Shown: positions 19,506 through 58,064 of the stretch, piece after piece
Layout of the letters: the number at the start of each line of letters is the position of its first letter
Position numbering within the stretch: position 1 is the stretch's first letter
Origin: Candidatus Latescibacterota bacterium
Lineage (GTDB): Bacteria; Latescibacterota; UBA2968; UBA8231
Assembly (NCBI GenBank): GCA_965261395.1
Contig: OZ253462.1
Location: 352,001-416,000 of the forward strand
DNA: 64,000 bases
Direction of reading: 5' to 3'
The notes under the pieces: model-generated
Databases searched by the model: none
Told to the model about the DNA's origin: nothing
The model's input: the letters and a program-made list of their open reading frames with translations, nothing else
Translations under genes and position numbers: made by a program

Positions 19506-19511
19506 GGGTCT

Positions 19512-21475: not shown

Positions 21476-23119
21476 CTAATCAGCCGGCTCGCGCACGGTC
21501 AGCACCTGATTGGCCGCCACATCGCGCAGCGTCTGGACTGTACCACTAGGCCAGTGGAGGACGACGCTTTCTACGATGGGAGCGGTTCCCAAGCCAAAAT
21601 GCACTTTGAGATCGCTGTGGGATAGGAAGCCGGTGCCGCTGCGTACCTCGGCGGTCTGGCGTTTACCTTGGGCGTTTATCTCGATCCAGGTGCCGATTCC
21701 GTCGCGGTTGCTGCGGGTGCCTACGGTGGCGATTTGCAAGTAGTTGCCCTCGTTGCCGCCATCGTTGCGCAGGAGGTTGGGAGTGCTGTTGAGATTTAAG
21801 ACGAAGAGGTCTATATCGCCGTCGCGATCGTAGTCGGCAAAGCTGGCACCTCGGCTCACCTCGACTAAGGCAAAGCCCGGGCCGGCGCGTGCGGCAACTT
21901 CGGCAAAGGTGCCGTCGCCCAAGTTTTGGTAGAGGAAGTTAGGCTCGGCATAGCTGCTGTTGGTATGGGGCAAATCGGCTTGGGGGTAGGTGTGGCCATT
22001 GGCCGCGAAGAGGTCTTGGTCGCCGTCGTTGTCAAAGTCGAAAAATCCTGTGCCCCACCCCACCTCGGGAATGCCCCACGCCGCAATGCGGGAGACGAAG
22101 GATACGTCGAGGAAAAATCCACCGCGCTGATTTTTGTAGAGGGTATTGTACTCGCCTTCAAAATTGGTGACAAAGATATCGAAGTAGCCATCGTTGTCGT
22201 AATCGCCGACCGCCGCGCCCATGCACCCCTGTTCGGTGCCGTCGCCGCTATAGGCCACGCCCGCACCGAGGCCCTCGTCTGCAAAGGTGCCGTCGCCTTG
22301 GTTTTGGTACAGATTGTTAGGGGCCGAGTCGTTGGCGACGAAAATATCGGGCCAGCCATTGCGGTCGAAATCGCCGAAGACGACCCCGTACCCATAGTAC
22401 TTTGCGCCGGCAATGCCGGCTTCCTCGCTGCGGTCGGCCAAGGTGCCGTCACCGCGGTTGTGATAGAATACATCGCCGGCGGGCAGCAAGCCGCGCGGAC
22501 CGCAAAAAATATCGACGGTCTTCCACACGCAGGGGACGGTAGAAGTATAGTCCCGCGAAAAGTCGATATAATTGGCCACGTACAGATCGACGTAGCCGTC
22601 TAGATCGGCATCGCCGAAAGCACAGCCGACGCCCCATCGCTTGTCCCCGACGCCGGCTTTTTCAGTAATATCCTCAAAGATACCATCGCCCTGATTCTGG
22701 TAGAAGGTATTGCGGCCATAGTTGGTCACATACAAGTCCAGATCGCCATCGTTGTCGTAGTCCGCGGCGGCGCAACCCATGGACCAACTCGTGTCGCCCA
22801 CCCCCGCGGCGGTAGTGATATCGACAAAGCGATCCCCTTGGTTGCGATAGAGATGATTGGTCGGTTCTTCGCCCGGTGGAAAGCCTTCAAAGCGGGAGCC
22901 GTTGGCGACGTATAGATCGACGTCGCCATCGCTGTCGTAGTCGAAAAAGGCCGTGCCCCCTATAGCCGTTTCAACGATGTATTCTTGGGTGCTGCCCGAG
23001 ACGTTCCGCGTAGTGATGCCGAGTGCGGCAGCTTGGTCGGTGAACTGAGTAGGCAGGGGTTGGGCTGAGAGGAGAGCCGTACACAGGAGGATGAAGATCC
23101 CGCTTACTAGCGCGTGCAT
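21476..23119 (-). CDS. CRTAC1-family FG-GAP/ASPIC-UnbV secreted protein
   Basis: Signal peptide LLSA|Q; FDYDSDGD.. repeats; SNRDGIGT..GFLSHSD..HFGLG..HWPSG. Start moved to ATG 23119. Confidence 0.9.
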   Translation of the reverse strand: MHALVSGIFILLCTALLSAQPLPTQFTDQAAALGITTRNVSGSTQEYIVETAIGGTAFFDYDSDGDVDLYVANGSRFEGFPPGEEPTNHLYRNQGDRFVDITTAAGVGDTSWSMGCAAADYDNDGDLDLYVTNYGRNTFYQNQGDGIFEDITEKAGVGDKRWGVGCAFGDADLDGYVDLYVANYIDFSRDYTSTVPCVWKTVDIFCGPRGLLPAGDVFYHNRGDGTLADRSEEAGIAGAKYYGYGVVFGDFDRNGWPDIFVANDSAPNNLYQNQGDGTFADEGLGAGVAYSGDGTEQGCMGAAVGDYDNDGYFDIFVTNFEGEYNTLYKNQRGGFFLDVSFVSRIAAWGIPEVGWGTGFFDFDNDGDQDLFAANGHTYPQADLPHTNSSYAEPNFLYQNLGDGTFAEVAARAGPGFALVEVSRGASFADYDRDGDIDLFVLNLNSTPNLLRNDGGNEGNYLQIATVGTRSNRDGIGTWIEINAQGKRQTAEVRSGTGFLSHSDLKVHFGLGTAPIVESVVLHWPSGTVQTLRDVAANQVLTVREPAD

Positions 23120-23165
23120 CGATTTTGCTGCGAGATCAAAGACGAAGGCAGGGTGGCCGTCATAG

Positions 23166-24869
23166 CTAGGGAGCTGAAATTTTTCCAGCAAAGAACTGAA
23201 GGTCGAAATAGTTCAAAGAACCATCGTCCACTTCCACGGTGGGTTGTAGAGGGCCGCCACGGTTCTGGGTGAGAAAAATATAGGACTTGTACCCTCGGTC
23301 TGAAAGGCGTTGCAACAGGCGCTCGTAGTGTCTGGGAGTAGCGACGTAAAAGAAGGGCCTTTGGTAAAATTCGCTGCACAGGGCGTGGGGAACCCAGCGC
23401 TGGTTGGTGATGACGACCTCTTCGCTGCGCTGGCGCATCTCGCTATTGAGGCGATAGGAGAAGGCCTTCTTCTCTGCGAGAATCGAAACTCCATACACTT
23501 GAGCGGCAAAGCTGAGCGCTATAACAGCACCCACAGCGAGGACGCCTATGCTGAAGTGGGGCCGCTGGCGTTCTAGCCAGTCAATCGCGTTTCCGGCTGC
23601 TAAGACTGCGAAGAGCGGGTAGAGGATCAGGAAATAGCGGTTGCCCCAGTGGATGCCCATGGAACCCACCTTGGGCGCGGCCAAGGCGTAGAGTGTGGCA
23701 AAGCTCAAGGCGACCAGCCAAATCCAGCGTCTAAGCGGCGCATCGGAATTGGCGGAACGCAAGAAGGCTAGGGCTACAAAGGGAGCCGAGGCAAAGAGGG
23801 CATTGGACGATTTGAGCATGTAGTCGATGGGGCTCGCGTAGAAGAAGTAGCCCCCGAGCGACAAACCGGCGCTTATCAGGGCCAAGGCACTGTACGCGGG
23901 TACGGCCTTTTGCAAAGCCGGGGGCGCAAAGCGCGGGCTAAGTACAAAGGCGAGCACGAACGGAAGGGCGAGCACGAGGGATAGCGAGGGGATCGGGTTG
24001 GACGCTATGAAGAGGTTGTAAAACACCCGAGGCCGCGCCTCAAGATGGTGGACCCAGTCGGCGGCAGTGGATAGGTGCGTACTCAAATGGTAACCGAAGG
24101 GATGGCCGATGGTCAGCCATTGGAAGAGCCAGAGCGGCAGGAGAGAAACGAAGAGGATCAGGGCCGACGAGACGAGGATTTTTAATCTGCCGGCGCTGGC
24201 ATAAAAGGCGGTGCATAGAGCCAGCACTAGGCAAAGCAAATAGAACTCGTCTCTGAAATAGACCGATAGTCCGGCGGCGACCATGCCCAAGAATAGGTAC
24301 TTGGGGGCGGAGTCTGCGAGAAATTGCAACAGATAGCGCACGCTCCAAATCCCCAAGCAGATCGCCGGGACGTGTTCCCATAAGACGAGACTGTAAAAAA
24401 ATACCGGCGTACAGAGTCCGGCCGTGAGGACGGCGACATGCGCGACCACAATTCGCGGGGTGACCAAACGCGCCACTTGGGCCAAGCCGGCCAGCATCGC
24501 CAGCGAGGAAAGCGCCGGCAACAGATAAAGACCCCAATGGCCTACATGGGTAAAGAAAAGGGCGGAGATAAGGGCGAAGACCGGCGAGAAGACGGAATAG
24601 AGTTTGCCGGACTCAACGCGCGTGAAATAGTAGGGCAGGGGATTGTAGATGAAGTCAGGATCGACGATTTGCCCCGGCCAAGGGATGGAAAAGTCGGTGT
24701 AGCGGCTGTTGGCTAAGGCTTGGACTTGGAGGAATTTGTTGGCGTTATCGGTAATCCAAAAGCCGCGTTTTTCGAGGACGCAGAGGGCTGCTACATAGCA
24801 GACTGAGACGGCGAGTAGAGAGCACAGGACCGATCTGCCGGGATGGAATCGGCGGAAGAGGACGACCAT
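23166..24869 (-). CDS. GT-C-fold putative membrane glycosyltransferase (LA_3751/LA_3752-like)
   Basis: About 12 TM segments; ITDNANKFLQ..DP..YNP..F...FALISA.F...G.WGLY, WEH, FRDE and HWGNRY motifs typical of lipid-linked-sugar transferases. Confidence 0.65.
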   Translation of the reverse strand: MVVLFRRFHPGRSVLCSLLAVSVCYVAALCVLEKRGFWITDNANKFLQVQALANSRYTDFSIPWPGQIVDPDFIYNPLPYYFTRVESGKLYSVFSPVFALISALFFTHVGHWGLYLLPALSSLAMLAGLAQVARLVTPRIVVAHVAVLTAGLCTPVFFYSLVLWEHVPAICLGIWSVRYLLQFLADSAPKYLFLGMVAAGLSVYFRDEFYLLCLVLALCTAFYASAGRLKILVSSALILFVSLLPLWLFQWLTIGHPFGYHLSTHLSTAADWVHHLEARPRVFYNLFIASNPIPSLSLVLALPFVLAFVLSPRFAPPALQKAVPAYSALALISAGLSLGGYFFYASPIDYMLKSSNALFASAPFVALAFLRSANSDAPLRRWIWLVALSFATLYALAAPKVGSMGIHWGNRYFLILYPLFAVLAAGNAIDWLERQRPHFSIGVLAVGAVIALSFAAQVYGVSILAEKKAFSYRLNSEMRQRSEEVVITNQRWVPHALCSEFYQRPFFYVATPRHYERLLQRLSDRGYKSYIFLTQNRGGPLQPTVEVDDGSLNYFDLQFFAGKISAP

Positions 24870-24914
24870 GTATGGGGTGCAGCGGAATTTAGAGGTGCGA
24901 CCAAGAAGAACGTT

Positions 24915-25949
24915 TTACGGCGAACTGGCCGATAAATTGTCGAAGACGATGAACTGATGCTCGGCCAATCCGAGTCGCTCGGCCAGTTCATAGCCAGCGC
25001 TCATGGGCAGCGAGGAGTTTAATTCCACAATCATCAAATCCCGCTCTCCGGTGCCGATCTGGCCCAACTTGGCCAGCCCGTCTAAGTTGCTCAGGAGGGG
25101 ATTGCCGCCAATATAGAGGCTTTTACCCACCTGCCTGAGATTGTCCAGTCCATCCAAGTTTTGCAGGGCTTGGTTGCGGTTTATGCTCAAAGCGCCTCCG
25201 ACCTCCGCCAGAGTATTTAACCCCTCCAAGCTCTTGAGGGCGGGATGTCCATCGATCATCAATCCGCCCTTAATAGTCGCAATCCCGTCCAAACCCCGCA
25301 GGTCTTTGAGCGCACCATTGAATATGAGCAGCAAATCCCCCTCTACCACGGAGAGGCTGCCCAGCCCCTTTAGGTCGCGCAGGGCCTTATTATCCCTGGT
25401 CTTGATACTGCCCCCTACGTGGGTCAGTCCGCTCAGACCATCTATGTGAATCAGCTCGGTCGTGGCATCGACAAAGAGATGGCCGCCTACGCGCCTGAGC
25501 GCTTTGAGCCCATCCAGATCCCGCAGCGAAAAATTACAGCTAATCTCGAAATTTCCCCCCACGCGTTCTAGCTGTTCCAACCCGTGCAGTGCAATCAATC
25601 CATTGGCGAGAATATAGAAATTCCCCTCTACATAGCCGAGATTGTGCAGCCCCTTCAAGTCCGTCAATGCCCCATTATTCCGAATTACTAAATCTCCCTC
25701 TACTCCCACCAGATTGTGCAGCGGCTCCATACTACTCAAGTACGCGTCCTCGAATAAAAAATCTCCCTGCACCACAAAGGCTCCCTTCTGCGCCCCCGCC
25801 CAAGCATCTAACTCCTCCTGCGACCCAATAGTTATCGCCCCAGTCCCACCAACAGCCAGCGGCTCTTCAGCCCCTCCATGACAGCCACCCCAAAGGGCGG
25901 CCCCCAAGACAGATACTCCAAAACCCAATCTCCAACTAGCCATACTCAT
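24915..25949 (-). CDS. Receptor-L-domain-like leucine-rich repeat protein, probable lipoprotein
   Basis: LWGGC lipobox-like motif; repeated ~25-aa L..L.GL..L..VGG.L.I..N units. Confidence 0.85.
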   Translation of the reverse strand: MSMASWRLGFGVSVLGAALWGGCHGGAEEPLAVGGTGAITIGSQEELDAWAGAQKGAFVVQGDFLFEDAYLSSMEPLHNLVGVEGDLVIRNNGALTDLKGLHNLGYVEGNFYILANGLIALHGLEQLERVGGNFEISCNFSLRDLDGLKALRRVGGHLFVDATTELIHIDGLSGLTHVGGSIKTRDNKALRDLKGLGSLSVVEGDLLLIFNGALKDLRGLDGIATIKGGLMIDGHPALKSLEGLNTLAEVGGALSINRNQALQNLDGLDNLRQVGKSLYIGGNPLLSNLDGLAKLGQIGTGERDLMIVELNSSLPMSAGYELAERLGLAEHQFIVFDNLSASSP

Positions 25950-27616
25950 CCCCCCTGCACGGCTTCCTCCCCTTCCTGAATTTTCAACAAATTCTCCTCG
26001 AAAATTTCGACCGAGTACTTCTTGTGTAACCCGCGCATATACTGCACGTACGCCTTTTGCGACCGGGCAATTTGTACGTAAGCCCGCGCCCGCCGTTGCG
26101 AAAAAACATGGTAGGGCTTCTTGGGGGGTGGCTGCTTCTCCACCACCTTGAACACCGAATACCCCCCTCTCACCTTTACCGGTCCCCCCACATCCCCCAC
26201 CTGCAGATCTTTGGCTACTTTGTACAGATCTTGGTACAGCCCCACCGGACTCAAGACCAACCGTCCCTCGTGGTGCGCCCGCTCCTTGCGAATCGTATAG
26301 TCCCTAGCCAATTGCACCGCGTCGGCATCGCCCATCAACTCCTCTTGCAGACTGTGGGCCTGCTCCTTAAAGGCCACCAGAATCTCGGTCGCGATAATAT
26401 TCTCAAAGCCCTGAAATTTCTCGGGATTTTGATCGTAAAAGACTCGCGCCTCTGCATCGGTGATCGGTGGCAGCCGCTCCTCAACCTCTCGCTTTCTCAA
26501 CGCGCTCACCAGCATATCGCTGCGCTTATTGGCCACCGCTGCGAGGATCATCTGATTTTTGTCCAGTCCCTTGCCGCGGGCCTCTGCCAAAAACATCCGA
26601 TTGGGGATGACCGAATCCTGTAGATAATCGACGATCCAGTCTCGCTCATAATCGCGCGAATAGCCCTCTTCTTTCTCCGGTACGCTCAGGACGAGATCGT
26701 CAATAGTGAGCGTGCCGCCTTTGTAGCGGCACAATACCTCTTCACCCTCCTCGGGCGACGCTACCCGTTCTTCAGGCGACAGCGCTAGGCGCATCAGCAC
26801 ATGGTCTATCTTGTCGTAGTGAATTTGCGGCGCGTACTGGTCGTTGAGCGAATCGCGCAGAGCTTGGGCGCGCTGTAGGCGCTTTTGGCCGAAGACCTCC
26901 TCCCTGACAAACTGGGCTACCTCCCGAACGGCGACAGGAGCATCGTCTAAAACCTTGACGATCACATAGCGCTGCGGGTCGCCACCCCACGACAGTGGCT
27001 CGGAGATCTCGCCGACCTGCATGGAAAAGATACTCCGGAGCGGTGGAGCCGTATCGTCAATCGTATAGTACTTTTCCACATCCCCGCCTTGGTCCCGCGT
27101 CGCCTCGTAGAGCGAGTACTCTCTGGCCAGTTGGCGGAAATCAGCGCCGGCCTCTAGTTCGTCGAGCAGTTCAAAGGCCTCGTCCCGGGTCGCCACCAAA
27201 ATACCCGCATAGCGCAGCGCTCGGTCTCGGTGTGAATCCCGGTAGTGCTGCATCAACTCCTCTTCGGCAATGGAAATCTGCTGACCAATCTCCATACTTT
27301 TGTAGAGTCTGACGGTCTGATCCTCAGCGAATTGCTCGACCTTGCGCTTAAACTCCAGTTCGTCGCCAATGCCAGCTCGTTCCGCTTCGGCGAGCAATAG
27401 TTTTTTGTCGATTAGTCCGTTGAGTAGAATCCGGTCGGCCTCGATACCGGTCTTACCCATCTGGTAGGCTTTGGGAATATTCGCGGCATAGGCTCTGAAT
27501 TCGCTGACGGCGATGGGTTGATCTTCTATCTGGGCGAGTACTAGCTCGTCTTGGGCTGCACAAGGAAGCGAGATCCCTAGGATGCAAACGCCTGAGCGCA
27601 GTAGTCCATTCTTCAT
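25946..27616 (-). CDS. SurA/PrsA-like parvulin (PpiC) peptidyl-prolyl isomerase with two rotamase modules
   Basis: Signal peptide; LIDKKLLLAEA, ILV.T..EA..L..GADF.QLAREYS..GGD and GEISEP motifs; second module ILV..LARDY..VGDVGGPV..GYSVFKV. Confidence 0.85.
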   Translation of the reverse strand: MKNGLLRSGVCILGISLPCAAQDELVLAQIEDQPIAVSEFRAYAANIPKAYQMGKTGIEADRILLNGLIDKKLLLAEAERAGIGDELEFKRKVEQFAEDQTVRLYKSMEIGQQISIAEEELMQHYRDSHRDRALRYAGILVATRDEAFELLDELEAGADFRQLAREYSLYEATRDQGGDVEKYYTIDDTAPPLRSIFSMQVGEISEPLSWGGDPQRYVIVKVLDDAPVAVREVAQFVREEVFGQKRLQRAQALRDSLNDQYAPQIHYDKIDHVLMRLALSPEERVASPEEGEEVLCRYKGGTLTIDDLVLSVPEKEEGYSRDYERDWIVDYLQDSVIPNRMFLAEARGKGLDKNQMILAAVANKRSDMLVSALRKREVEERLPPITDAEARVFYDQNPEKFQGFENIIATEILVAFKEQAHSLQEELMGDADAVQLARDYTIRKERAHHEGRLVLSPVGLYQDLYKVAKDLQVGDVGGPVKVRGGYSVFKVVEKQPPPKKPYHVFSQRRARAYVQIARSQKAYVQYMRGLHKKYSVEIFEENLLKIQEGEEAVQGG

Positions 27617-27641
27617 AAATATAAAACCATTGTTTGTAGGG

Positions 27642-29564: not shown

Positions 29565-29600
29565 TATCTACCTCCTACACCGGTAGATGATCCAGATAGT

Positions 29601-29640
29601 AAATAAAAGGAGGGGAGGAATAGAATTCCCCCCCTCCTTT
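29601..29640 (-). terminator. Rho-independent terminator downstream of the TWGxIK-tailed protein gene
   Basis: Minus strand reads AAAGGAGGGGGGGAAT-TCT-ATTCCTCCCCTCCTTT-TATTT: a long stem with one G-U pair followed by a U-tract. Confidence 0.8.
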
Positions 29641-29669
29641 ATGAGGCGCTTATGCGGTGCAAAAACCGC

Positions 29670-30590
29670 TTATTTGCCGAATGAAGCCTTGATCTGGCCC
29701 CAAGTGTTGTCTTCGACGGCTGTGGGAGCGACACCTTCAAAGGCGGACTCGTCAACGCCCAGCAGCACCCAGTCAGCCAAGAAATCGGCGTCGCCGAAGG
29801 ATTCGATGTTGGGACTGATGGCCCAGCGCGAATGGCAGTTACAATCGTCGGATAGCTCGGCATCGGTATCGAAGACGTGCCCTGTAAGGCCGATGATCTC
29901 GTCCTGCTGGAAGTCGTGGAGCACGCTCCCTTGGGGGTCTTCCCAGTTGAAGTCGTCCCAATAGACGCTCCACCACTCGCCCCGTTGGCGCATCTCCTCA
30001 AAGGAATTGGGAGCCGTGCCGCTAAACCAATACGAATGGTCGGAATACGGCGGCGTGTCGTACCAGGTAGCCTGGGTCATCCAGAACCAGTTCCACTCTC
30101 CCTCGCGGGCTTGGCCATTGTCGAACCAATAGTGGCTGATTTGCGCATGGCGACCGCGCTGACGTGCCACCTCTTCTTCGGTCTGGCCTTCCAGATCCCA
30201 AAAGGAGCCACCCGAGTGATCGGCGTCCACAGTCGTTTCGACCGACTCATTGCCCAACTGGTACTTGTCGTCGAAGCGCTCGTAGGCCCAGTAGATGCGG
30301 TTGGTTTCCTCGTTCCAAGTGGGAATCCAGCGGAAGGAAATCGAGGACACGTCCAGATCGCCGGTGTAGATCCACGGCCGGGCCGTGCTCTGTACGACGC
30401 TCTGCTCGGTGATCCAAAATTCCTCGGGAATGATATCCCATTCGCTCAGATCGGCATCTAAGACCGGAAGATGAGTCTCGGGCCATTGCCACACCGCGCC
30501 GATAAAATCGGGCGGATCGTGGGCTTGGACCTTGGTGCTCAGGCCGAGCAAAAGCGCAGTGGCAAATAAAGCGGATAAAACTTTCTTCAA
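29670..30590 (-). CDS. Acidic, Trp-rich secreted protein (CBM9/DOMON-like) with C-terminal TAVE..TWGxIK tail
   Basis: TTG start with AGGAGGT RBS; signal peptide VQA|H; P.LDADLSEWD and DADHSGG motifs; ends PTAVEDNTWGQIKASFGK. Confidence 0.8.
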   Translation of the reverse strand: MKKVLSALFATALLLGLSTKVQAHDPPDFIGAVWQWPETHLPVLDADLSEWDIIPEEFWITEQSVVQSTARPWIYTGDLDVSSISFRWIPTWNEETNRIYWAYERFDDKYQLGNESVETTVDADHSGGSFWDLEGQTEEEVARQRGRHAQISHYWFDNGQAREGEWNWFWMTQATWYDTPPYSDHSYWFSGTAPNSFEEMRQRGEWWSVYWDDFNWEDPQGSVLHDFQQDEIIGLTGHVFDTDAELSDDCNCHSRWAISPNIESFGDADFLADWVLLGVDESAFEGVAPTAVEDNTWGQIKASFGK

Positions 30591-30701
30591 AGCGAAACCT
30601 CCTTTTTGAGGTGTGAGGTTTTGAAGGCGAGAAACAGGAAGTCGATAGTTAGCTTCTACGCTCTGTAATTAATAAAAATAGATTGTGAGGTCAAGCAAAA
30701 A

Positions 30702-33620: not shown

Positions 33621-33625
33621 CCCTA

Positions 33626-36433: not shown

Positions 36434-36472
36434 GGTAAAAATTCATCACGAGGGAATTCCCCTCGCCCAATA

Positions 36473-38758: not shown

Positions 38759-38847
38759 ATCTTCTAACTCGACTCCTCTGGGCCAAGGCAAGTAACTGTA
38801 TGAAATACAAAAAGACACAGCAACCAAAATCCGTCAACGCATAGCCG

Positions 38848-40553
38848 CTAGGGTTGGTTGGCTTCAATCCGGGTCTCGCCCATAAACCCACCGGCGATCA
38901 AACGTTCCGCTAGGGCCTTAGCCGCGCTACTCGGCAAGTTTCTATTGGCCCTAATGCCTAGCCGACCACCTACTCTTTCTAGCATTGCCAAGCCCGCCAA
39001 ACTCTGCAATTTCTCGTTAAATTGGACAAATAAATGGCCTTCGATGGTCCTGAGTTCGCCTAATCCAGCCGCGCTGATCAAGGCACCGTTCCGCTCCAAG
39101 AGCAGGTTCCCGCGCACCACTTTGAGGGCCTGCAATCCGCTTAGCGTCTTTAGTGCGTTGTTATTGCGGATAATCAGATCGCCTCCTAGGCGGGATAGGG
39201 CACCCAAGCCCTCGACGCTAGCCAACGCCTCGTTGCCTTCGAGCAGTAGTCCATCCTCCACGATTTTGAGGCGGCGCAAGCCCTGCAAATCGACCAGCAA
39301 CCCATTGCCAACAATCGCCAGTTTACCCCCGACGCTTTCCACCTTGTGCAGCCCCTCCAACGTCGTCAGTGAAGGATTGTTCTCAACCCGCAGAAACTCA
39401 TCTACGATGCCCAAACGGCGCAGCCCAACCAGATCAGTCAGGGCACCATTGCCGAAGATGGATAGGATTCCCCTTATCCGGCTCAGGCGGTGCAGCCCTG
39501 CCAAACTGATCAGCGCTCCATTATCGACGATCAGCAAATCCCCGCCGACGTAGTCTAGACGGCGCAGACCCGCCAAACTTTGCAGCGCGCTATTGCCGAT
39601 GATCAAGAGGAGTCCCTCAATGCGGGCCAAGCCGGCCAAGCCCTCGAGATCGGGCAGAACGCTATTGGCCTGAATCAGCAAATCGCCCCAATGCTCTGGC
39701 ACCCGGCCAAGCCCGCCAAAGATACCAGCGCATCGTTTTTCTCGACTCTCAGACTACCCCCGATCTGGCGCAGGCTACCCAAGCTCGCCAAACGCTCCAA
39801 ACGGGGGTTGCCGATTACCAACACATTCCCAGCGACGCGCGCGAGTTGCTCTAGGCCCGCTAGCTCGACCAAGGCTCTATTTTTCCTAATCCGCAAAAAA
39901 CCGCCCACGTCTTCCAATCGCCGCAGTCCCCCCAAGGCTTGCAACGCCCGATTGCGCTCTATAGCCAACCCGCCCTTTAGGCGTTTGATTCCCTCTAGGC
40001 CGACCAGGCTTTTTAGCGATCCATTGCCGACGACGAGTACCTGCCCCTCTATCGCCTCCAATCGCTCCAGCCCCTCAATGCGGACGAGTTGGCGATTGAA
40101 TTGAATCCTGAGCGACCCGCCCATACGACTAACCCGACGCAACCCCCTCAGACCCACCAAGGCATCGTTGCGCTCGACTATTAAGCTGCCCCCCAATTCC
40201 TCCAGAGACCGCAATCCCTCCAAATCCACGAGTTTGGGGTTGCGCCGGATCCTCAGACTGCCCCCAATCCGCTTTACGTGGTGCAGGCCCGCCAAACTTT
40301 CCAACGAGTCACTATGCTCAATGCTCAGATCGCCTCCTATATACTCGAGTCGCTCCAACCCGTGCAGCGTTTTCAGTTGGTCGCTCTGCACGAGCAAATG
40401 TCCTTCAATAGACCGGGTCGTCAAAGCACCTAGGTCGGCTGCCGAATCAATGACCAATCCTTCTGCTGGTTTGTTCGACTCAGTCGCTTTTATCGGGCCA
40501 ACACTCCAACACAACACCCCAATCAGCGGTGCGAGCAGGGCGCTGTGATTCAT
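38848..40553 (-). pseudogene. Receptor-L-domain-like leucine-rich repeat protein split by a 1-nt frameshift at 39686-39689
   Basis: Both ORFs (39675-40553 and 38848-39702) carry the same repeat. Adding one G to the G4 run restores CQSIGGDLLIQANS, matching the repeat consensus. Confidence 0.85.
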
Positions 40554-40573
40554 TATGTGGTCCCTAGGCTAAA

Positions 40574-40598
40574 GTTTCCCCGCTCAAAGCGGGGGAAC
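40574..40598 (-). terminator. Intergenic hairpin, possible terminator
   Basis: Minus strand reads GTTCCCCCGCT-TTG-AGCGGGGAAAC then TTT, directly after the stop at 40605. Confidence 0.5.
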
Positions 40599-40604
40599 GC
40601 AAAG

Positions 40605-41484
40605 TCAATGAGTAGGTTGGACTACCCGTACAATCTGATTGGAGTCAATAGCGGCCAACGTCTGAACTTGGCCATCGGGCCAGCGAATCGTTATATCCGC
40701 CTTCGTCGCCTGACCGAGGCCAAAATGAAGGCGGGGATCGTGGCCGGATAGATAGCTCCCCCCGGACTGGCGCTCCCGCACCTGACGCGCACCGCCAGCC
40801 GTAACGGTGACGCGGGCACCCAACGCATCCCGCTGACCGGCACCGACCAAGAGGAGCTCGATCCAGTGCTGGCGATTGCCCCCATCGTTGCGCAACAGGC
40901 GCGGCCGGCCGGCCACAGTGGTCGCCAGTAGATCCAGATCGCCGTCGTTGTCAAAATCGGCCGCCGCCGCGCCGCGAACCGCGCGCTCAACGACAAAGTC
41001 GGTGCCCAGTTGATCGGAGACCTCTTCAAAATGAGCACCGTCTTGGTTGCGCAGCATAAGGTCGGGCTGGGCGTAGCGGAGGTCGGCGTCGAGTTGCTCG
41101 ATATTATCCACCACGTGCCCGTTGCCGACAAATAAATCGAGGTCGCCATCGTTGTCGTAGTCCATGAATTTGGTCCCGAACCCCAAGGACAGATAACTGG
41201 GTGCCCCCAAGCCGAGGTGGGCGGTAAAATCGGCAAAGCGCCCCCGGCCATCGTTCCAGTAGAGGGTGTTGGTTTCGCGCGAGTAATTGGTTACGAAAAG
41301 ATCGGCGTACCCGTCGTTGTCAAAATCGCCGAAGTCCACCCCCATACCGGCTTCGGCGTGCCCATCTTCATTTATAGTGCTGGAAATCAATCCCGGCTTC
41401 TTGGGCGACTTCCCGGTATCGCACCTGCGCCTCTGCCGCGACCACACAAGCGCACAAGATGGACAATCCTACGTATCTTCTCAT
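40605..41484 (-). pseudogene. CRTAC1-family protein with internal deletion plus frameshift near 41372
   Basis: ATG 41484 gives MRRYVGLSILCACVVAAEA|QVRYREVAQEAGIDFQHYK*. The C-half NEDGHAEAGMGVDFGD..YLSGHDPRLHFGLG resumes in another frame. Confidence 0.85.
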
Positions 41485-41544
41485 ATACTAATTGCTCGGT
41501 TTATTTGACCGACAATCTAACCGCATCAACAAACCGGGACACTC

Positions 41545-43101
41545 GTGCATTTGTACCTAAAAAACGGGCGATCAATAGCCCGCTTTCACCTGCCCTTACA
41601 AAAGGCCTTGGCTTGGCTCACGGCCACCTTTTGTCTCCTCCTCTGTGCCTGTGGCCCCAAGGAGCGCGACCCCTTGGTCAACGCCGGGATGTACGCCTTG
41701 GCTCAGGAGCGCTACAGCGAAGCCATCGTCGCCTTTCACAAGGCGCTGGCCTCACACCCCGACGATCACGAGGTTCACCACTACCTCGCCCGCTCTTATT
41801 TAGCACTGGGCAAATTTCCCCAAGCTCTGCGCGCGATCGAACACGCGATTGAACTAGCCCCGCAAAAAAACCAGACGCGCGCCGAATTGTACGAAATCCT
41901 CGGCATCATCCACACGGCCCGATACACCTCCAGAGCGTATAGCCAAGACCATTACCGCGATGTCGAAGCAGCGCGAGCCGCCTTTGAGCAATCGACCGCG
42001 CTCGATCCCCACCGAGCAACGGCGTACTACAACCTGGGCTTATTGCACGGCTATCGCAAAGAAGTAGATCAGGCCCAAGCAGCGTACACTGCGGCCTTGG
42101 AGGCGGATTCCACCTTGGCGCCGGCCTACAAGAAATTGGGCAAAATCCACCGCGAAAAGGGGTTTCCGCCCGAGGCGGCTGGGGCCTTCAAAAAAGCGGT
42201 GCGCTTCGACCCGCAGGACGCCGAAGCGCACTTTCTCTTGGGACTAGCTCATCGCGATATGGGCGACAATGAGGCGGCTTTGCAGGCACTACTCAAGGCC
42301 ACCGAGCTCAACCCCGACTCGCCCAAGCTCCGCCTCAACCTCGGCAATATCTATCTCCGCCTAGGTCGCCGCGAAGAGGGCAAGCGGGAAATGGCGCGTT
42401 CCGAAAGCCTGCGCCAGCAGCATCGGGGCCTGCACTCCGAAATCTCCCCGCCGACGCACAAATCGCTCCCCATCGGCTCGGCGCGGGATCGCTACAATAT
42501 GGGTTTGAAGCACCAGATGGTCGGCGAAACCGACCAAGCGCTGTTAGAGTTTCGTCGCGCAGTCGAAATCAAACCCGATCACAAAGACGCCCATATCGGC
42601 CTCGGCCTCCTCCTCGCCGAACAAGGCCGGCACAAACTGGCGGCCCGATATTTCCAGCGGGCTATTGAGCTAGATCCAGAAAATCCCGTTCTCTACGTGC
42701 ATCTAGGCAATGCTCTCCATCAATCGGGATTACTCGAAAGGGCGGCCCAAACCTTGGCCAAGGCGAGCCAACTCGACACCGCCCTCGTCGAGCCTCCCTA
42801 TTCGCTCGGTTTGATCGCCGCCCAGAAGCGCCAGTTCAAAGAAGCTACGCGATTTTTCGCCCAAGCCACGGCCCTCGCCCCCCAATACGCCAAGGCCCAC
42901 TTCAACCTAGGGGTAGCCCATGCTCAGCTCGGAGACTTTGCTGCGGCCCGCACCGCCTACCAACGCTTTGTCGAGTTGGAGCCCGGAGATGGGCGCGGGC
43001 ACCTCTACTTGGGCGATGCCTGCGAAGCACTCGGTCTGCTCGCAGAGAGTCAAAAGCATCGAGCGCGTGGTCAGCAGCTTTTAGAACCGGACGAACGCTA
43101 G
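41545..43101 (+). CDS. Multi-TPR repeat protein, probable lipoprotein
   Basis: LLCAC lipobox; repeated AYYNLG/AHFNLG TPR motifs; start uncertain. Confidence 0.85.
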   Translation: MHLYLKNGRSIARFHLPLQKALAWLTATFCLLLCACGPKERDPLVNAGMYALAQERYSEAIVAFHKALASHPDDHEVHHYLARSYLALGKFPQALRAIEHAIELAPQKNQTRAELYEILGIIHTARYTSRAYSQDHYRDVEAARAAFEQSTALDPHRATAYYNLGLLHGYRKEVDQAQAAYTAALEADSTLAPAYKKLGKIHREKGFPPEAAGAFKKAVRFDPQDAEAHFLLGLAHRDMGDNEAALQALLKATELNPDSPKLRLNLGNIYLRLGRREEGKREMARSESLRQQHRGLHSEISPPTHKSLPIGSARDRYNMGLKHQMVGETDQALLEFRRAVEIKPDHKDAHIGLGLLLAEQGRHKLAARYFQRAIELDPENPVLYVHLGNALHQSGLLERAAQTLAKASQLDTALVEPPYSLGLIAAQKRQFKEATRFFAQATALAPQYAKAHFNLGVAHAQLGDFAAARTAYQRFVELEPGDGRGHLYLGDACEALGLLAESQKHRARGQQLLEPDER

Positions 43102-45686
43102 TAGGCCACGGCCAGGGTGCGGACTAATTCCTCTTGGCGCAATTCAGCTCCCGACGTATTGGCATCCAGTCGCAAATGCATTACGTACACCCCCGGCGGC
43201 ACGAGCGTTCCCTTTTCGTTCCTTCCGTCCCACCTCATTTCGTACATTCCCGAGGCAAAATCCCGCTGCTCGGCTAGCTGGCGCACCAAGCGGCCCTGCA
43301 AATCGTAGATAGTCGCCTCAACCCGCTGACTGCCCTCCACCAGCACCACTGAAAAGCGCAACGCCACCTCGTCGTTGACCCCATCCCCATTCGGCGTCAA
43401 TACCGCTGGCTCGACCACTAAATCCGCAAAAATCGAGCGACGCTGCGGCTGCCCCACCACCAAGAGCCGATTGCTATCGACAGTCCCCACAGCATCCCCT
43501 GGATCGACGCGCTGCCAGATCCCCTCCCCATCTTCTCCTCGTCGTAGCTGCACTTTTAGAGGTCCACCGCGGGAAAACAGACGCCCCGCAAAGTCTATCC
43601 GCAGCACGGCCACCTCACTCCCCGGCTCCATCGGGGCAAAGGACACATGCACCCGGTCCGCCGCTGCGGCCAACACCTCCGCCGCCAATGGTGAAAAATC
43701 CTCCCCGTCCGCACTCCCCAACAACCCTTCGTACGTCAGCTCCATGCCCGCCGGTGCTTCCAACAACAACTCGTTGAACCCCCTATCTCCTGCGCCAAAC
43801 TCGGGTCGCACATACACCGAAAAAGGGGCCTCGACCCCCAACCGATCCACCTGATTGGGCACCGCCTCCCCCAAGAGCCGCCGCGCCACCGGCTCGGCGA
43901 AGTGCAGCCGCAGCCCTGACAACCTCGCCGCCACATCCGGTACGGCCGAACGCAACGTCGCCCGCACCTTGAGAAACTCCCGCGGCGACGGCGAAGTGAT
44001 GGGACTACCTTCCGGCTCGTCGTAGGGCACACTCCACGGCTCCCAGTCTGCGCCAGCGACTTCCACGGACACAGTCTCGCCGCGAAAAATGCTCAATAGT
44101 TTGTTGTAGGCCGCTTCGGAGATTTCGGTCCCATCCTTTTTGAAGTAGTGCACGATCTCGCCCAAGGTGTCGCCGGTGCGAGTCTGAAGCTGCACCTCGG
44201 TGCCGGGAGGAGTGTGAGCGTCCCACTCGAGGGAGACCAAGTTGCGGCTACCCCCCAACCGGATCAGGTCCGACTCGAGCTGCACCTCTGGCAAAAACCC
44301 CTCGCCAAAAAGTTGTATCTCGCTCAACCTGGTAGCGCTCCGGTTGGGCCGGCGCACGTGTTCTACTTCAAACACCAAGCGAAAAAAGCGCCCCTTTATC
44401 GGGTCGAAGTCATTGCCATCGACGGTGAGGCCCCCCGCGACGCTCCGCTTTACTTGCTCGCGCCGCACGGCAGTGTCCCACTTGAGTCCCCCGTCCACCT
44501 CCCGCGAACCGTCCGAAAATTCCAACCGATGGTTCCCAAGGGCGTACTCTACGAAACTCATCCTGTGGCTATGGACCCAGAAGAACGAGCCCAAGTCAAT
44601 GAACAACTCGTCCTCTAACCGATTCTCGATGTTGAATAGGGGCAACCCCTCTACGCTGGTCACATCACCGTCGATCATCAATTGAGGATTGATACTGCCG
44701 GGCACCGTAGTAGAAATGGAGCCATTGCGCCGCAAGGCCCCACTGGCCAAATCGTCGCCTTGGGTCCAGACTTCGAGTTCGGCCAACCGGGGCCGCTCGC
44801 GCCGAAAGTAGCGTATCGCCCCCCGCCGCTGAGGATCGAGGGCCTCGTACACTGCCTGTTTGACCACGATCTCCCGCCCGTCGACTTGGCGCTTGCTATA
44901 TTCGATAATTCCTCGGTCTTCAGAAGGTAGCTGATCGTATTCCTCTGGGGAGACTTCTCGGCCGCGGCCAAAATCGCTGGCCTGCACCACCACTTGGACA
45001 AAGCGTCCCACAGCCCGGCGCTGGTCGAGCCCCACAGGGTCGAGTTCGACCTCAAAGGTTCGCTGGCTTTTGTTGGGTTTTAGCGTCTGTAGCACTGGAA
45101 AGAACTCGATGCTTGACCCGCCGATTGCCTGTACTGGCTTCTGCCCGTCCGACACCAGTACATCAAATAAAAGAAAGGGATCGCCCATTCCCTCCTCGAC
45201 GAATCTCAGCGCGATTTTGTTGATGAAGACAACGCGGCCCAAATCCACGGTAAACCACCACTGAGACGACAGCTCTACATTCTCAGCGACCGGATCAGGT
45301 TCCCAGTACGTGGTCATATCGCCATCTAGGGCGGCGACGACCCCTGCGCGGTTGGAGCCACCCTGAATGGCGTCGAGGAGGACGATGGCTTCAGGCTCTT
45401 TCTTGGAGAGGTAATCTGGCGGGTTATAGCGCAGAAAATCGACGATGTCCAGCGCGGCGTTGGTGTTTTTGCGGACGCGATTGGGCTGCACCTCTCCGAG
45501 GGGGGAAATCTGGATAGTACCGGGCGCAAATTTCCAGTGGTCCCAGTGGTCAGGTCCGACGACGACTTGGTTCGCACTGCGGTCGATCCGATGACCTGCT
45601 TGAGCCAGCAAATTCTCGGCCCCATTCGACCACAGCACTGCGCTGACCACCACAAATCGCGAGAAGAGTTTCGTGCGGATATTCAT
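43098..45686 (-). CDS. Secreted protein with discoidin-like domains and C-terminal TPNGDG/FlgD-Ig domain (subtype B)
   Basis: LLA|Q; DGDMTTYWEPD..WWFTVDLGR; SDLIRLG..QTRTG; SPSPREF; PAVLTPNGDGVND..WDGRNE..PPGVY..AVAY*. Confidence 0.8.
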   Translation of the reverse strand: MNIRTKLFSRFVVVSAVLWSNGAENLLAQAGHRIDRSANQVVVGPDHWDHWKFAPGTIQISPLGEVQPNRVRKNTNAALDIVDFLRYNPPDYLSKKEPEAIVLLDAIQGGSNRAGVVAALDGDMTTYWEPDPVAENVELSSQWWFTVDLGRVVFINKIALRFVEEGMGDPFLLFDVLVSDGQKPVQAIGGSSIEFFPVLQTLKPNKSQRTFEVELDPVGLDQRRAVGRFVQVVVQASDFGRGREVSPEEYDQLPSEDRGIIEYSKRQVDGREIVVKQAVYEALDPQRRGAIRYFRRERPRLAELEVWTQGDDLASGALRRNGSISTTVPGSINPQLMIDGDVTSVEGLPLFNIENRLEDELFIDLGSFFWVHSHRMSFVEYALGNHRLEFSDGSREVDGGLKWDTAVRREQVKRSVAGGLTVDGNDFDPIKGRFFRLVFEVEHVRRPNRSATRLSEIQLFGEGFLPEVQLESDLIRLGGSRNLVSLEWDAHTPPGTEVQLQTRTGDTLGEIVHYFKKDGTEISEAAYNKLLSIFRGETVSVEVAGADWEPWSVPYDEPEGSPITSPSPREFLKVRATLRSAVPDVAARLSGLRLHFAEPVARRLLGEAVPNQVDRLGVEAPFSVYVRPEFGAGDRGFNELLLEAPAGMELTYEGLLGSADGEDFSPLAAEVLAAAADRVHVSFAPMEPGSEVAVLRIDFAGRLFSRGGPLKVQLRRGEDGEGIWQRVDPGDAVGTVDSNRLLVVGQPQRRSIFADLVVEPAVLTPNGDGVNDEVALRFSVVLVEGSQRVEATIYDLQGRLVRQLAEQRDFASGMYEMRWDGRNEKGTLVPPGVYVMHLRLDANTSGAELRQEELVRTLAVAY

Positions 45687-52134: not shown

Positions 52135-52140
52135 TACCTC

Positions 52141-58055: not shown

Positions 58056-58064
58056 AAAAGCGGG

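Follow-up and report, generated by a model that had tools for sequence, protein, structure and literature searches.

A modular cell-surface cassette of predicted giant barrels and type-B-like CTD proteins in part of the phylum Latescibacterota

The gene run and its composition

The window, that is, the whole stretch of 64,000 nucleotides from a Latescibacterota genome that was analysed, carries one copy of a modular cassette of cell-surface genes that is restricted to a part of the phylum Latescibacterota. The core of the cassette consists of a gene for a secreted lectin-like CTD protein, directly followed by one or two genes for predicted barrels of ~930 amino acids, and this core is accompanied by a TWGxIK-tagged, CBM9-like protein and a double-parvulin PPIase. 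The co-oriented run of genes on the minus strand, as first described in a sequence-only reading, was recovered from the ORF list and the Pfam and NCBIfam searches (Table 1), and the two paralogous proteins of ~950 amino acids that it reported to be 5 bp apart, here named BigA and BigB, are indeed separated by positions 33621-33625. Signal-peptide-like segments are discernible by eye in the printed N-termini of the window proteins. A third type-B-like CTD protein, of 865 amino acids, is separated from the run by a TPR gene on the plus strand.

Two genes upstream of cargo 1 differ from their counterparts at the orthologous locus L024 in a close relative. The two overlapping Recep_L_domain ORFs correspond to a single ORF of 494 amino acids at that locus, and from their sequences they look like one gene that has been split here. 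Of the 539-residue orthologue of the FG-GAP/ASPIC ORF, only residues 285-538 are matched by this ORF of 280 residues, and residues 1-38 are found in another frame.

Table 1. Genes in and around the cassette copy in the window, with profile matches.
Feature	Length (aa)	Coordinates	Strand	Matches and remarks
CTD protein	865	43098-45695	-	Pfam FlgD_ig 32.3, CHU_C 31.2, F5_F8_type_C 31.0 bits; third type-B-like CTD protein
TPR gene	518	41545-43101	+	Pfam TPR
Shortened FG-GAP/UnbV_ASPIC ORF	280	40605-41447	-	Pfam FG-GAP_3 and UnbV_ASPIC
Recep_L_domain ORF	292	39675-40553	-	Pfam Recep_L_domain
Recep_L_domain ORF	284	38848-39702	-	Pfam Recep_L_domain
Cargo 1	784	36473-38827	-	CHU_C 34.5 bits, FlgD_ig 29.0 bits, residues 688-777
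BigA, predicted giant barrel (head)	935	33626-36433	-	no Pfam/NCBIfam match at E <= 0.01
BigB, predicted giant barrel (tail)	972	30702-33620	-	no Pfam/NCBIfam match at E <= 0.01
TWG protein	306	29670-30590	-	no Pfam/NCBIfam match
Cargo 2	640	27642-29564	-	CHU_C 30.8 bits, FlgD_ig 25.4 bits, residues 544-628
Double-parvulin PPIase	556	25946-27616	-	Pfam Rotamase 142-208, Rotamase_2 385-502
L-domain protein	344	24915-25949	-	Pfam PF01030 Recep_L_domain 48.4 bits
GT-C-like membrane protein	567	23166-24869	-	NF047440 LA_3751/LA_3752 putative glycosyltransferase, 190.4 bits
FG-GAP_3 + UnbV_ASPIC (CRTAC1-like) protein	571	21476-23191	-	Pfam; end of the co-oriented run

Structure of the barrels, the cargo and their companions

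BigA and BigB show 39% identity over their whole length (396/1004). In the AF2 model of BigA (pLDDT 66.8, pTM 0.63), residues 148-934 form ~28-30 long antiparallel strands, and the large proteins are predicted to be outer-membrane barrels of this size. Two conserved parts were modelled poorly, the N-terminal region (residues ~33-145) and a segment that is Asp-rich and EF-hand-like (residues ~543-636). Every structural neighbour retrieved in the fold searches was an outer-membrane barrel, among them LptD, SlpA, MtrB and other generic barrels identified by Foldseek, for which the best TM score was at most 0.28 when normalized by query length and up to 0.38 when target length was used. By this search (TM <= 0.28), the fold of the large proteins is not that of SprA, a TonB-dependent receptor or a soluble enzyme, and neither the modelling nor the Foldseek comparison placed them in a known family.

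The sequence comparisons gave a similar picture. A search of the PDB with the large protein yielded no matches at E <= 1, none of the 120 best of 850 homologues contains a Pfam domain, all names given to them are "hypothetical protein", and the 30 nearest ESM Atlas clusters are without any Pfam family. Literature searches found no published description of the barrel/CTD cassette. By these comparisons, the giant barrels appear to be an undescribed family with no Pfam, NCBIfam or PDB relative. In the barrel tree, a clade of eight head barrels, in which BigA is placed, and a clade of eight tail barrels are sisters, and the branching order of one mirrors that of the other; where barrels are doubled, they represent an ancient head/tail pair whose two members were duplicated together.

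Cargo 1, which is encoded directly upstream of BigA, is lectin-like and secreted, and combines a CBM32/F5-8C-like domain with Ig-like sandwiches and a type-B-like T9SS CTD. Its longest ORF encodes 784 amino acids while the homologues are ~750 amino acids long, so the true start is probably located further in. In the AF2 model (pLDDT 77.3), residues 678-784 match the CTD of PorU (6za2_B; Z 12.4, rmsd 2.4, 99 aligned residues) and also that of PorZ (Z 10.1), and residues 125-290 match CBM32 modules (Z ~10.5-11). No enzyme fold was seen in the structure comparison of the model, and the protein resembles the SusE-like protein BT2857 (Z 9.5). Relatives of cargo 1 are named "T9SS type B sorting domain-containing protein" by NCBI. 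Three CTDs in the window scored 16.3, 24.8 and 20.7 bits against the NCBIfam type-B model TIGR04131, below its cut-off of 35 bits, and in the tails a type-B start is followed by a sequence resembling FlgD_ig. Two orphan CTD proteins, also in the window, close an Opp-type ABC importer operon.

The TWG protein contains a putative signal peptide, a CBM9-like body and, a few residues before its C-terminus, the tag AVE..(S/T)WGxIK..F. The resemblance to CBM9 is a lead provided by the nearest ESM Atlas clusters, in which PF06452 (CBM9_1) is present in 13-100% of the members. The protein of 556 amino acids is a periplasmic double-parvulin PPIase. It had been called SurA-like, and while two PPIC-type parvulin stretches are present, the Pfam search detected no SurA_N domain and the nearest solved sequences are PrsA-type parvulin foldases (E 7e-8).

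Distribution within the genome and across Latescibacterota

Among the 5121 ORFs identified with a crude longest-ORF caller, there are 46 giant barrels in 37 loci. The CTD family, to which cargo 2 belongs, comprises 148 of the called ORFs (2.9%), and yet a member of this family is located directly upstream of, and co-oriented with, 31 of the 37 barrel heads, which is far beyond chance. Genes were considered near a barrel if they were within four genes of it, a neighbourhood of 314 of the 5121 genes. The CTD-family genes near barrels number 86, and the remaining 62 are more than four genes away from any barrel. The TWG family has 29 paralogues in the genome, 17 of which are near barrels, and the PPIase family has 30, of which 20 are. 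The TWG-tailed protein and the parvulin are thus recurrent companions of the core, and the description of the PPIase as dedicated suits these 20 paralogues and is limited to them.

The link to the barrels is specific to one class of CTD. A C-terminal CTD match was found in 211 proteins, 140 of which have a TPNGD-type start; 82 of these 140 are near barrels, as compared to 5 of the 71 proteins without such a start, which are mostly of the PNPFN...LLR type. The type-A-like CTD class of the genome is not linked to barrels. Furthermore, the distances between barrels correlate with those between their upstream cargo proteins, over 30 pairs (CTD, r = 0.43; passenger, r = 0.59), and none of 2000 permutations gave a correlation as high. 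Any unit whose parts are linked in function is expected to co-diverge and co-occur, and these patterns are not evidence for anchoring in particular.

The same neighbourhood is conserved beyond this genome, as a CTD gene is located directly upstream of 63 of the 80 barrel heads in 78 loci fetched from other Latescibacterota. In a survey of 168 Latescibacterota genomes, sorted by taxonomic family (f1, f2 and so on), barrels were identified in all 75 genomes of f1 and in none of the 56 genomes of f2-f4; f5, f6, f9 and f11 were all positive, as were 12/13 genomes in f10 and 5/6 in f12. The TWG family showed the same pattern in f1 (75/75) and f2-f4 (0/56). The best scores of the CTD-B profile were 1e-26 to 1e-37 in f1, f5-f7, f9 and f11-f13, with the exception of G028 in f12 (1.9e-12), which is also without a barrel match, and only 1e-11 to 1e-16 in f2-f4. 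In genome G032 (f14, 75% complete), the CTD-B profile matches strongly and no barrel match was obtained. The family-level distributions of the barrel, the CTD class and the TWG family are nearly identical. SprA, on the other hand, was identified in 160 of the 168 genomes irrespective of barrels, including 55/56 in f2-f4 and 104/112 in the other families, and consequently a genome with barrels that clearly lacks SprA was not encountered.

These patterns bear on the possibility that the barrels have no joint function with the cargo and are ordinary structural outer-membrane proteins or porins that happen to adjoin the abundant genes for T9SS cargo. As both families have many members, chance adjacency would sometimes arise, but this explanation is highly improbable in view of the position of the barrel heads directly downstream of such a small fraction of the genes, the same order in other genomes, the class-specific link, the matching phyletic patterns and the co-divergence of barrel and cargo. 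That the gene order is an artefact of ORF calling is contradicted by independent tblastn coordinates. The lineage-specific envelope system that had been proposed is real, with the type-B-like CTD cargo and the paired giant outer-membrane proteins as its core.

The GT-C-like, L-domain and CRTAC1-like genes, which had been counted among its parts, are not core parts of the cassette. The FG-GAP/ASPIC family has 51 members in the genome, of which 9 are near barrels, and the L-domain protein downstream of the PPIase, which has a lipoprotein-like N-terminus and seven tblastn matches in the genome, is co-oriented and not recurrent in cassettes. The GT-C-like gene encodes a polytopic membrane protein whose NF047440 score is just below the cut-off of 200 bits, and its one tblastn match in the genome makes it specific to this copy. 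Since it is single-copy and the other two are not cassette-specific, a glycosylation enzyme is not an established part of this copy. Another PMT_2-like/TPR membrane protein recurs in a different cassette subtype.

The T9SS core and the role of the barrels

T9SS genes are absent from the window, as had been stated, but present elsewhere in the genome. An ORF of 2164 amino acids, the single SprA homologue, matches SprA_N (78 bits, above cut-off), and PorU (618 bits, above the cut-off of 420 bits) is adjoined by a PorV-like gene (150 bits, below the cut-off of the model). The GldL and GldM models matched nothing in the genome, and the same searches matched no control genome either. [quoted passage not shown] The analogy to a type-B CTD cargo with its cognate barrel directly downstream agrees with this rule. 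However, while gene order and logic are alike, the giant barrels are unrelated to PorP/SprF, and the Pfam search gave no PF11751 match in them. PorP/SprF proteins are about one-third the size of the giant barrels.

The best explanation, to which we assign a probability of about one half, is that the giant barrels are cognate shuttle or anchor partners of T9SS cargo, similar to PorP/SprF in role, and build a sugar-binding surface platform. The sequence-only reading had suggested a translocon or an anchoring platform, and the translocon is the less likely half, because SprA, PorU and the PorV-like gene are encoded elsewhere and SprA occurs with or without barrels. A translocon or usher dedicated to the adjacent CTD proteins, formed by each giant barrel or pair with the parvulin as chaperone and independent of SprA, would account for the near one-to-one linkage of cargo, barrel and periplasmic foldase genes, a linkage reminiscent of chaperone-usher and two-partner secretion. 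The structural neighbours also include FimD ushers and FhaC/TamA barrels, and the GldL/GldM models, which matched no control genome either, gave no match in this genome. Nevertheless, such self-contained secretion is quite improbable, as the fold of the cargo tail is that of a T9SS CTD, SprA, PorU and the PorV-like gene are all retained in the genome, and the survey offered no clear instance of barrels in the absence of SprA. The structural matches are also generic, those of Z 12-14 spanning only ~260 residues, and 62/148 CTD proteins have no nearby barrel.

Alternatively, the giant barrel may mainly be a wide channel for the uptake of glycans or other polymers captured by CBM32-type CTD proteins and CBM9-like TWG proteins at the surface, a Latescibacterota counterpart of SusC/SusD/SusE-F loci made of unrelated parts. 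This would fit the SusE-like cargo, which has Ig-like spacers and a CBM32-like domain but lacks an enzyme fold, the CBM9 lead for the TWG protein, and the ~37 diversified loci per genome, which resemble polysaccharide utilisation loci in multiplicity. The barrel is wide and could be gated by its conserved N-terminal region and acidic segment, and the importer operon in the window points in the same direction. We consider uptake unlikely, however, since the barrels have no Plug domain or TonB-dependent receptor match, while 22 Plug-bearing ORFs, presumably such receptors, are present elsewhere in the genome. Moreover, the cassettes seldom contain hydrolases or inner-membrane transporters, an ExbD gene is located beside only one of those sampled, the link to an ABC importer was seen just once, for 2 of the 62 orphan CTD proteins, and the exclusive link of the type-B-like CTD class to the barrels is left unexplained.

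If the barrels are shuttle or anchor partners, the cargo, barrels and companions would reach the periplasm via Sec, where the parvulin may keep either the cargo or the barrel, which is very large, competent for assembly. The cargo would cross the outer membrane via the single SprA translocon, and its type-B-like CTD would then pass to its own giant barrel, which would keep the cargo on the surface, just as PorP/SprF barrels in Bacteroidota gather type-B cargo and anchor it. With its 28-30 strands, conserved N-terminal domain and conserved acidic segment, the barrel seems to exceed the needs of a simple anchor. The cell surface would in the end display ~37 sugar-binding platforms, each tuned differently.

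The gene run and its cargo proteins

The sequence-only reading had described a run of co-oriented genes on the minus strand, and the ORF list together with Pfam and NCBIfam scans confirmed this arrangement. The run encodes two large paralogous proteins, here called BigA and BigB, two proteins with a T9SS (type IX secretion system) C-terminal domain (CTD), referred to as cargo, a protein tailed by a TWGxIK tag (the TWG protein), and a peptidyl-prolyl isomerase (PPIase). By eye, the N-termini of the proteins resemble signal peptides.

Genes of the run, in transcription order, followed by other features of the window
Feature	Position	Strand	Matches and remarks
Shortened FG-GAP/UnbV_ASPIC ORF	40605-41447	-	Pfam; first in transcription order
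Two overlapping Recep_L_domain ORFs	39675-40553, 38848-39702	-	Pfam
Cargo 1, 784 aa	36473-38827	-	sole Pfam matches CHU_C and FlgD_ig, at the extreme C-terminus
BigA, 935 aa	33626-36433	-	no family match
BigB, 972 aa	30702-33620	-	5 bp from BigA; no family match
TWG protein, 306 aa	29670-30590	-	no family match; C-terminus at 29670-29720
Cargo 2, 640 aa	27642-29564	-	same C-terminal domain as cargo 1
Double-parvulin PPIase, 556 aa	25946-27616	-	two parvulin domains
Recep_L_domain protein	24915-25949	-	Pfam
Polytopic membrane protein	23166-24869	-	NF047440 (putative glycosyltransferase family), 190.4 bits, below the 200-bit cut-off
FG-GAP/UnbV_ASPIC protein	21476-23191	-	Pfam; last in transcription order
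Third CTD protein, with F5/8 type C domain	43098-45695		separated from the run by a TPR gene on the plus strand
Two orphan type-B-like CTD proteins	49780-52134, 52141-54207		downstream end of the importer operon
Opp/Dpp-type ABC importer operon	49780-61792	-	two SBP_bac_5 genes, a permease and a fused double ATPase
DUF6785+DUF6784 membrane protein	16974-21452		follows a protein of 843 aa that has a spermine/spermidine synthase domain
Two PhyH-type dioxygenase genes and one WelO5-like Fe/2OG halogenase-family gene	2414-3292, 47206-48078, 61955-62752		scattered

The three cargo proteins in the window match Pfam CHU_C (PF13585) with scores of 30.8, 34.5 and 31.2 bits, all above the 27-bit cut-off, and NCBIfam TIGR04131 with 16.3, 24.8 and 20.7 bits, all below the 35-bit cut-off, while FlgD_ig matches the same C-terminal stretch as CHU_C. 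Relatives are named “T9SS type B sorting domain-containing protein” by NCBI. In the AlphaFold2 model of cargo 1 (pLDDT 77.3), the C-terminal domain adopts the Ig-like beta-sandwich fold of solved T9SS CTDs: residues 678-784 align with the CTD of PorU (6za2_B) at a Z-score of 12.4 (rmsd 2.4 Å, 99 aligned residues, 18% identity), and the domain aligns with the CTD of PorZ (5m11) at a Z-score of 10.1. Residues 125-290 are modeled as a CBM32/F5-8C-type domain, with Z-scores of about 10.5-11 to several galactose-binding CBM32 modules, and are followed by Ig-like sandwiches at approximately residues 470-680; no enzyme-like domain was seen in the model. Pfam matches to F5/8 type C domains are also present in several paralogs of the cargo in other cassettes (described below).

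A few genes in the window deserve separate mention. Compared to the orthologous locus of a close relative (L024), the FG-GAP/ASPIC gene in the region 38848-41447 lacks about residues 39-284, its initial 38 codons are read in a different frame, and the L-domain gene of L024 is represented by two overlapping ORFs; these alterations could be decay or an assembly error. Two orphan CTD proteins are located at the end of an ABC importer operon, and a general link between CTD proteins and Opp-type importers was considered and rejected because this is the only such case in the genome. The membrane protein with DUF6785 and DUF6784 domains belongs to a 53-member family that is found at 52 other places in the genome, with nine members near the large proteins described below. 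The stretch is covered, with a likeness of 90-99%, by RNA-library contigs from four studies, which span the junctions TWG/BigB, BigB/BigA and BigA/cargo. Since such libraries may contain DNA and a contig does not equal a single transcript, we consider these contigs compatible with expression and do not count them as proof of expression or of an operon.

A family of giant barrels

BigA and BigB are 39% identical over their full length, and neither has a match in Pfam or NCBIfam at E ≤ 0.01, nor does BigA have a sequence match in the PDB at E ≤ 1. A word-indexed search identified 850 relatives, and among the best 120 of these none has a Pfam domain and the sole name is “hypothetical protein”. 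An exhaustive HMMER search of 1.84 billion cluster representatives identified 671 clusters at E ≤ 0.001. None of the 30 ESM Atlas clusters nearest to BigA is assigned to a Pfam family, and the nearest named cluster, DUF6029, has a score of 0.89, which is under the level at which the tool provides more than a lead.

The AlphaFold2 model of BigA, built from a 33-sequence alignment (pLDDT 66.8, pTM 0.63), has long antiparallel strands, about 28-30 in number, between residue 148 and the C-terminus. Two parts are strongly conserved but poorly modeled, an N-terminal region at approximately residues 33-145 and an acidic segment at approximately residues 543-636, and the latter includes a 12-residue stretch with the pattern of an EF-hand calcium loop. 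The structural neighbors identified with Foldseek and VIA-align are all outer-membrane barrels, namely LptD, Deinococcus SlpA, MtrB, FimD, TonB-dependent receptors and FhaC/TamA, with TM-scores of at most 0.28 by query length and up to 0.38 by target length, and the matches with Z-scores of 12-14 span only about 260 residues. As these are matches to generic outer-membrane barrels only, the predicted fold class is clear, and membership in a known family is excluded at the level of the model. Specifically, the barrels have no match to SprA_N (PF14349) in Pfam at E ≤ 0.01, and SprA structures have TM-scores of at most 0.20 by query length. Likewise, there is no Pfam match to Plug or TonB_dep_Rec, and TonB-dependent transporters are only weak generic structural neighbors. 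The idea that the two large proteins are neither TonB-dependent receptors nor SprA nor another known family held, for both in sequence comparisons and for BigA in structure comparisons.

Cassettes in the genome and across the phylum

The genome consists of a single 6.55-Mb contig with 50 tblastn-type matches to BigA. A search with a profile of the barrel alignment over 5121 ORFs, called with a simple longest-ORF script, identified 46 barrels. We grouped the neighboring genes into families by BLAST and defined genes within four genes of a barrel as near, which corresponds to 314 of the 5121 genes. Near barrels are 86 of the 148 CTD proteins, 20 of the 30 parvulin PPIases, 17 of the 29 TWG proteins, eight of 13 members of a family of about 700 aa with a weak PMT_2 match and TPR repeats (F15), and nine of 12 members of a family of lipobox-containing lipoproteins of about 255 aa (F16). 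The other 62 CTD proteins are orphan cargo, located more than four genes from any barrel. Together, the six linked families add up to 576 kb or 8.8% of the genome, with 1.95% for the barrels and 5.08% for the CTD proteins.

The genes are arranged in cassettes: in 31 of 37 loci, the first barrel is immediately preceded by a CTD-family gene on the same strand. Three layouts recur. One consists of a TWG gene, one to three CTD genes, one or two barrels and a PPIase, another of a PPIase, a CTD gene of about 1020-1080 aa, a barrel, F15, two CTD genes of about 700 aa and a TWG gene, and the third is that of the window itself. There is also a divergent branch of the barrel family: in the locus at 3543176-3551957 (L022), a single CTD protein is followed by three barrels in tandem (917, 976 and 1060 aa), and the locus at 5305048-5314935 (L023) has two further divergent barrels, next to which are large TPR proteins, F16 lipoproteins and a gene for ExbD (positions 4602-5066 of the locus).

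In a quick maximum-likelihood tree of the 46 barrels, with SH-aLRT values as the only support measure, eight head barrels, that is the first in their loci, form one clade (94) and eight tail barrels its sister clade (99), with the same branching order in both. The pair therefore has a single origin, after which the two genes were multiplied together. The distances between barrels and between their upstream cargo proteins are correlated for 30 pairs, with r = 0.43 when the cargo's last 100 residues are used and r = 0.59 when the remaining part of the cargo is used, and none of 2000 permutations gave values as high. At the level of sequence distances, the correlation shows a stable association of cargo and barrel through duplication, and it says nothing about binding.

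The CTDs can be sorted into two classes. Of 211 proteins with a C-terminal match to a profile built from the tails, 140 are class B-like with a TPNGD-type start and an ending in VAY, and 71 are class A-like, mostly with a PNPFN start and an ending in LLR, and resemble the tail of PorU itself. Three of 25 listed tails without TPNGD look by eye like variants of class B. While 82 of the 140 class B-like proteins are near barrels, this is the case for only five of the 71 class A-like proteins, and the linkage to barrels is thus specific to one of the two classes.

The 29 paralogs of the TWG protein share a signal peptide, a body and the tail AVE..(S/T)WGxIK..F. The protein has no Pfam match at E ≤ 0.01, including to PF06452 (CBM9). 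The ESM Atlas clusters nearest to the body (scores 0.92-0.97) contain PF06452 in 13%, 37% and 100% of their members, which serves as a lead only. The core pattern of the tag occurs at 52 sites in the proteome, 47 of them no more than 25 residues from a C-terminus, and the tag ends 3-15 residues ahead of the stop codon; 26 of these 47 belong to the TWG family, and 21 are other small proteins, most with signal-peptide-like N-termini by eye. We rejected the tag as a specific recognition signal for the barrel, as only one of the 21 other tagged proteins is located near a barrel, compared to 17 of the 26 family members. This indicates that the tag is general and that the cassette member is the CBM9-like family rather than the tag.

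In a scan with one genome per species, at least 643 stretches encode relatives of the barrels. We kept 78 loci, nearly all with record titles that refer to Latescibacterota, and the synteny recurred: a class B-like CTD gene is located directly upstream of 63 of the 80 barrel heads for which the upstream gene lies inside the locus. Second barrels number 56 in the 78 loci, and PPIase genes and TWG genes are present in 47 loci each. Among the heads without an adjoining CTD gene are some separated from it by a small ORF that is probably spurious, and some in a barrel-PPIase-barrel layout. Eight close relatives (L024-L030 and L084) retain the layout of the window.

Distribution of the cassette components and SprA in 168 genomes of the phylum, sorted into 14 taxonomic families (f1-f14)
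Component	All genomes	f1	f2-f4	Other families
Barrels	105/168	75/75	0/56	f5-f9, f11, f13 all positive; f10 12/13; f12 5/6; f14 0/5
Best class B-like CTD profile score		1e-26 to 1e-37	1e-11 to 1e-16	f5-f7, f9, f11-f13 1e-26 to 1e-37, except one genome (G028); f8, f10 intermediate
TWG family	103/168	75/75	0/56	f5, f6, f9, f10, f11 all positive; f12 5/6; f7, f8, f13, f14 none
SprA	160/168	74/75	55/56	most positive

Since related genomes are not independent, we present the distribution as patterns at the level of families rather than as statistics. Judged from the profile scores, the weak CTD matches in f2-f4 have the strength of cross-matches to the second CTD class. The barrel matches of f8 and f10 are weak, too. 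The exception is a genome in f14 (G032, 75% complete), which has a CTD profile score of 2e-32 and no barrel match. Four loci (L060, L061, L064 and L086) are titled Gemmatimonas phototrophica, Gemmatimonadetes, Planctomycetota and Gemmatimonadaceae, with 15-28 barrel matches per genome. A wider range of the barrels based on these titles was rejected, as coordinates and scores are identical to those of genomes from the same Latescibacterota family as the window, and the four titles look like mislabeled MAGs. The check covered these four loci, and the range outside of the Latescibacterota rests on the record titles and the phylum scan.

Proposed secretion through the T9SS and possible roles of the barrels

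No T9SS genes had been noticed in the window by the sequence-only reading, but the rest of the genome does contain SprA, PorU and a PorV-like gene. There is one match to SprA_N above the cut-off in the genome (SprA at 2067989-2069440), in a 2164-aa ORF, and PorU was identified with 618 bits versus a cut-off of 420 (5607643-5610810). The PorV-like gene adjoins PorU, with a score of 150 bits that is below the curated cut-off. About 70 proteins in the genome have type-A-like CTDs. For GldK, the model matched only with its C-terminal FGE-type part in 12 ORFs and with short N-terminal fragments in four. Genome-wide searches for PorP_SprF (PF11751), GldM and GldL gave no match, and as they were silent in the control genomes too, this does not show that they are absent from the genome. 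In addition, 22 ORFs outside the barrel family contain a Plug domain, which indicates that ordinary TonB-dependent receptors coexist with the new barrels.

By analogy, the closest published system appears to be that of the type-B CTD cargo and PorP/SprF-like barrels of the Bacteroidota. [quoted passage not shown] The examples given in these sources include SprB-SprF, Fjoh_3952-Fjoh_3951 and PG1035-PorP-PorE, and for F. johnsoniae they list 12 type-B substrates, three of which are orphans (PMC12618676, PMC9143113). The cassettes resemble these systems in that the cargo CTD has a TPNGDG.ND start and the T9SS CTD fold, the barrel gene sits directly downstream of the gene for the cargo, cargo-barrel pairs are numerous in each genome and orphan cargo occurs too, and the type-A-like class is handled separately, with PorU and a PorV-like gene present. 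They differ in several respects. PorP/SprF barrels are small, whereas the Latescibacterota barrel has about 930 aa and about 28-30 strands, and neither of the two barrels in the window matches PF11751 in Pfam at E ≤ 0.01. The barrels often occur as co-diverging head and tail pairs, and the companions are not PorE but a parvulin PPIase, a CBM9-like tagged protein and, elsewhere, a lipoprotein or a PMT_2/TPR membrane protein. Furthermore, there are about 37 loci and 148 cargo genes, compared to the 12 type-B substrates in F. johnsoniae, and the host phylum is not Bacteroidota.

These similarities suggest that lectin-like cargo would be exported through SprA and then be received and anchored by the neighboring giant barrel. 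We prefer this reading, with a probability of roughly one half, because the gene-order rule, the split into CTD classes and the orphan cargo are the same as in the Bacteroidota. Two other readings stay alive because the size of the barrels, their conserved N-terminal and acidic parts, the pairing of heads and tails and the private parvulin are not explained by it.

The first takes the barrel for an uptake channel, exclusively or in addition, with the binding proteins serving it; we consider this unlikely but worth retaining. As in SusC/SusD polysaccharide utilization loci with SusE/F, there are tens of diversified loci per genome that combine a large barrel with CBM- and Ig-like surface proteins. 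Unlike those loci, the cassettes lack Plug and TonB-dependent receptor domains as well as a SusD-like protein, the binding proteins carry T9SS CTDs instead of being lipoproteins, and hydrolases and regulators are mostly missing.

The second, which is less probable still, makes the barrel a dedicated translocon and the parvulin the chaperone of that translocon.

Two further comparisons concern the PPIase and the barrel themselves. Like the parvulin chaperones SurA and PrsA, the PPIase carries two parvulin domains, begins with what resembles a signal peptide by eye, and is encoded beside genes for outer-membrane proteins. It differs from SurA by the absence of a SurA_N match in Pfam at E ≤ 0.01, by having PrsA foldases as its nearest solved sequences, and by its 30 paralogs per genome, two thirds of which are in cassettes, whereas SurA is a single housekeeping gene in model bacteria. 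The best structural neighbors of the barrel, LptD-LptE, MtrB-MtrA/C, Deinococcus SlpA and the FimD usher, are comparable in strand number and size, and several of these enclose or hold a partner protein. However, the TM-scores are only 0.18-0.28 by query length with no sequence similarity, and none of these barrels is linked to T9SS cargo.

The literature searches gave no paper that combines Latescibacteria with type IX secretion, and none of the other papers listed describes the cassettes, as far as titles and abstracts show. In Youssef et al. 2015, the outer-membrane passages name non-specific porins and TonB receptors only (PMC4454575). Under the preferred reading, in which the barrel receives and anchors its cargo, the new element is a T9SS pair of cargo and partner whose barrel belongs to a new family. 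A more speculative and rather improbable extension is that the head and tail barrels form a gated surface machine, which would receive lectin-like cargo from the T9SS, display these binding proteins and also let captured polymers through to the inside, with the N-terminal domain and the EF-hand-like segment as the closure. If so, the Sus principle would have been invented independently in the Latescibacterota, with a new barrel family, with T9SS delivery replacing lipoprotein export, and with a private parvulin chaperone per locus.

The TWGxIK tag, which unrelated secreted proteins of small size have in common, may be one more sorting or anchoring signal so far undescribed. In the Bacteroidota, the way in which a type-B CTD finds its partner is described as an open question (PMC12618676), and the hundreds of natural cargo-barrel gene pairs would be a very good dataset for studying this by co-variation. 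With 8.8% of the genome in six families and barrels that have no informative names among the best 120 of 850 relatives, the phylum, which is widespread and uncultured, has an envelope biology that is in large part unexplained. If the barrels partner the type-B-like cargo, the handling of T9SS cargo outside the Bacteroidota would use a wholly different and much larger outer-membrane component.
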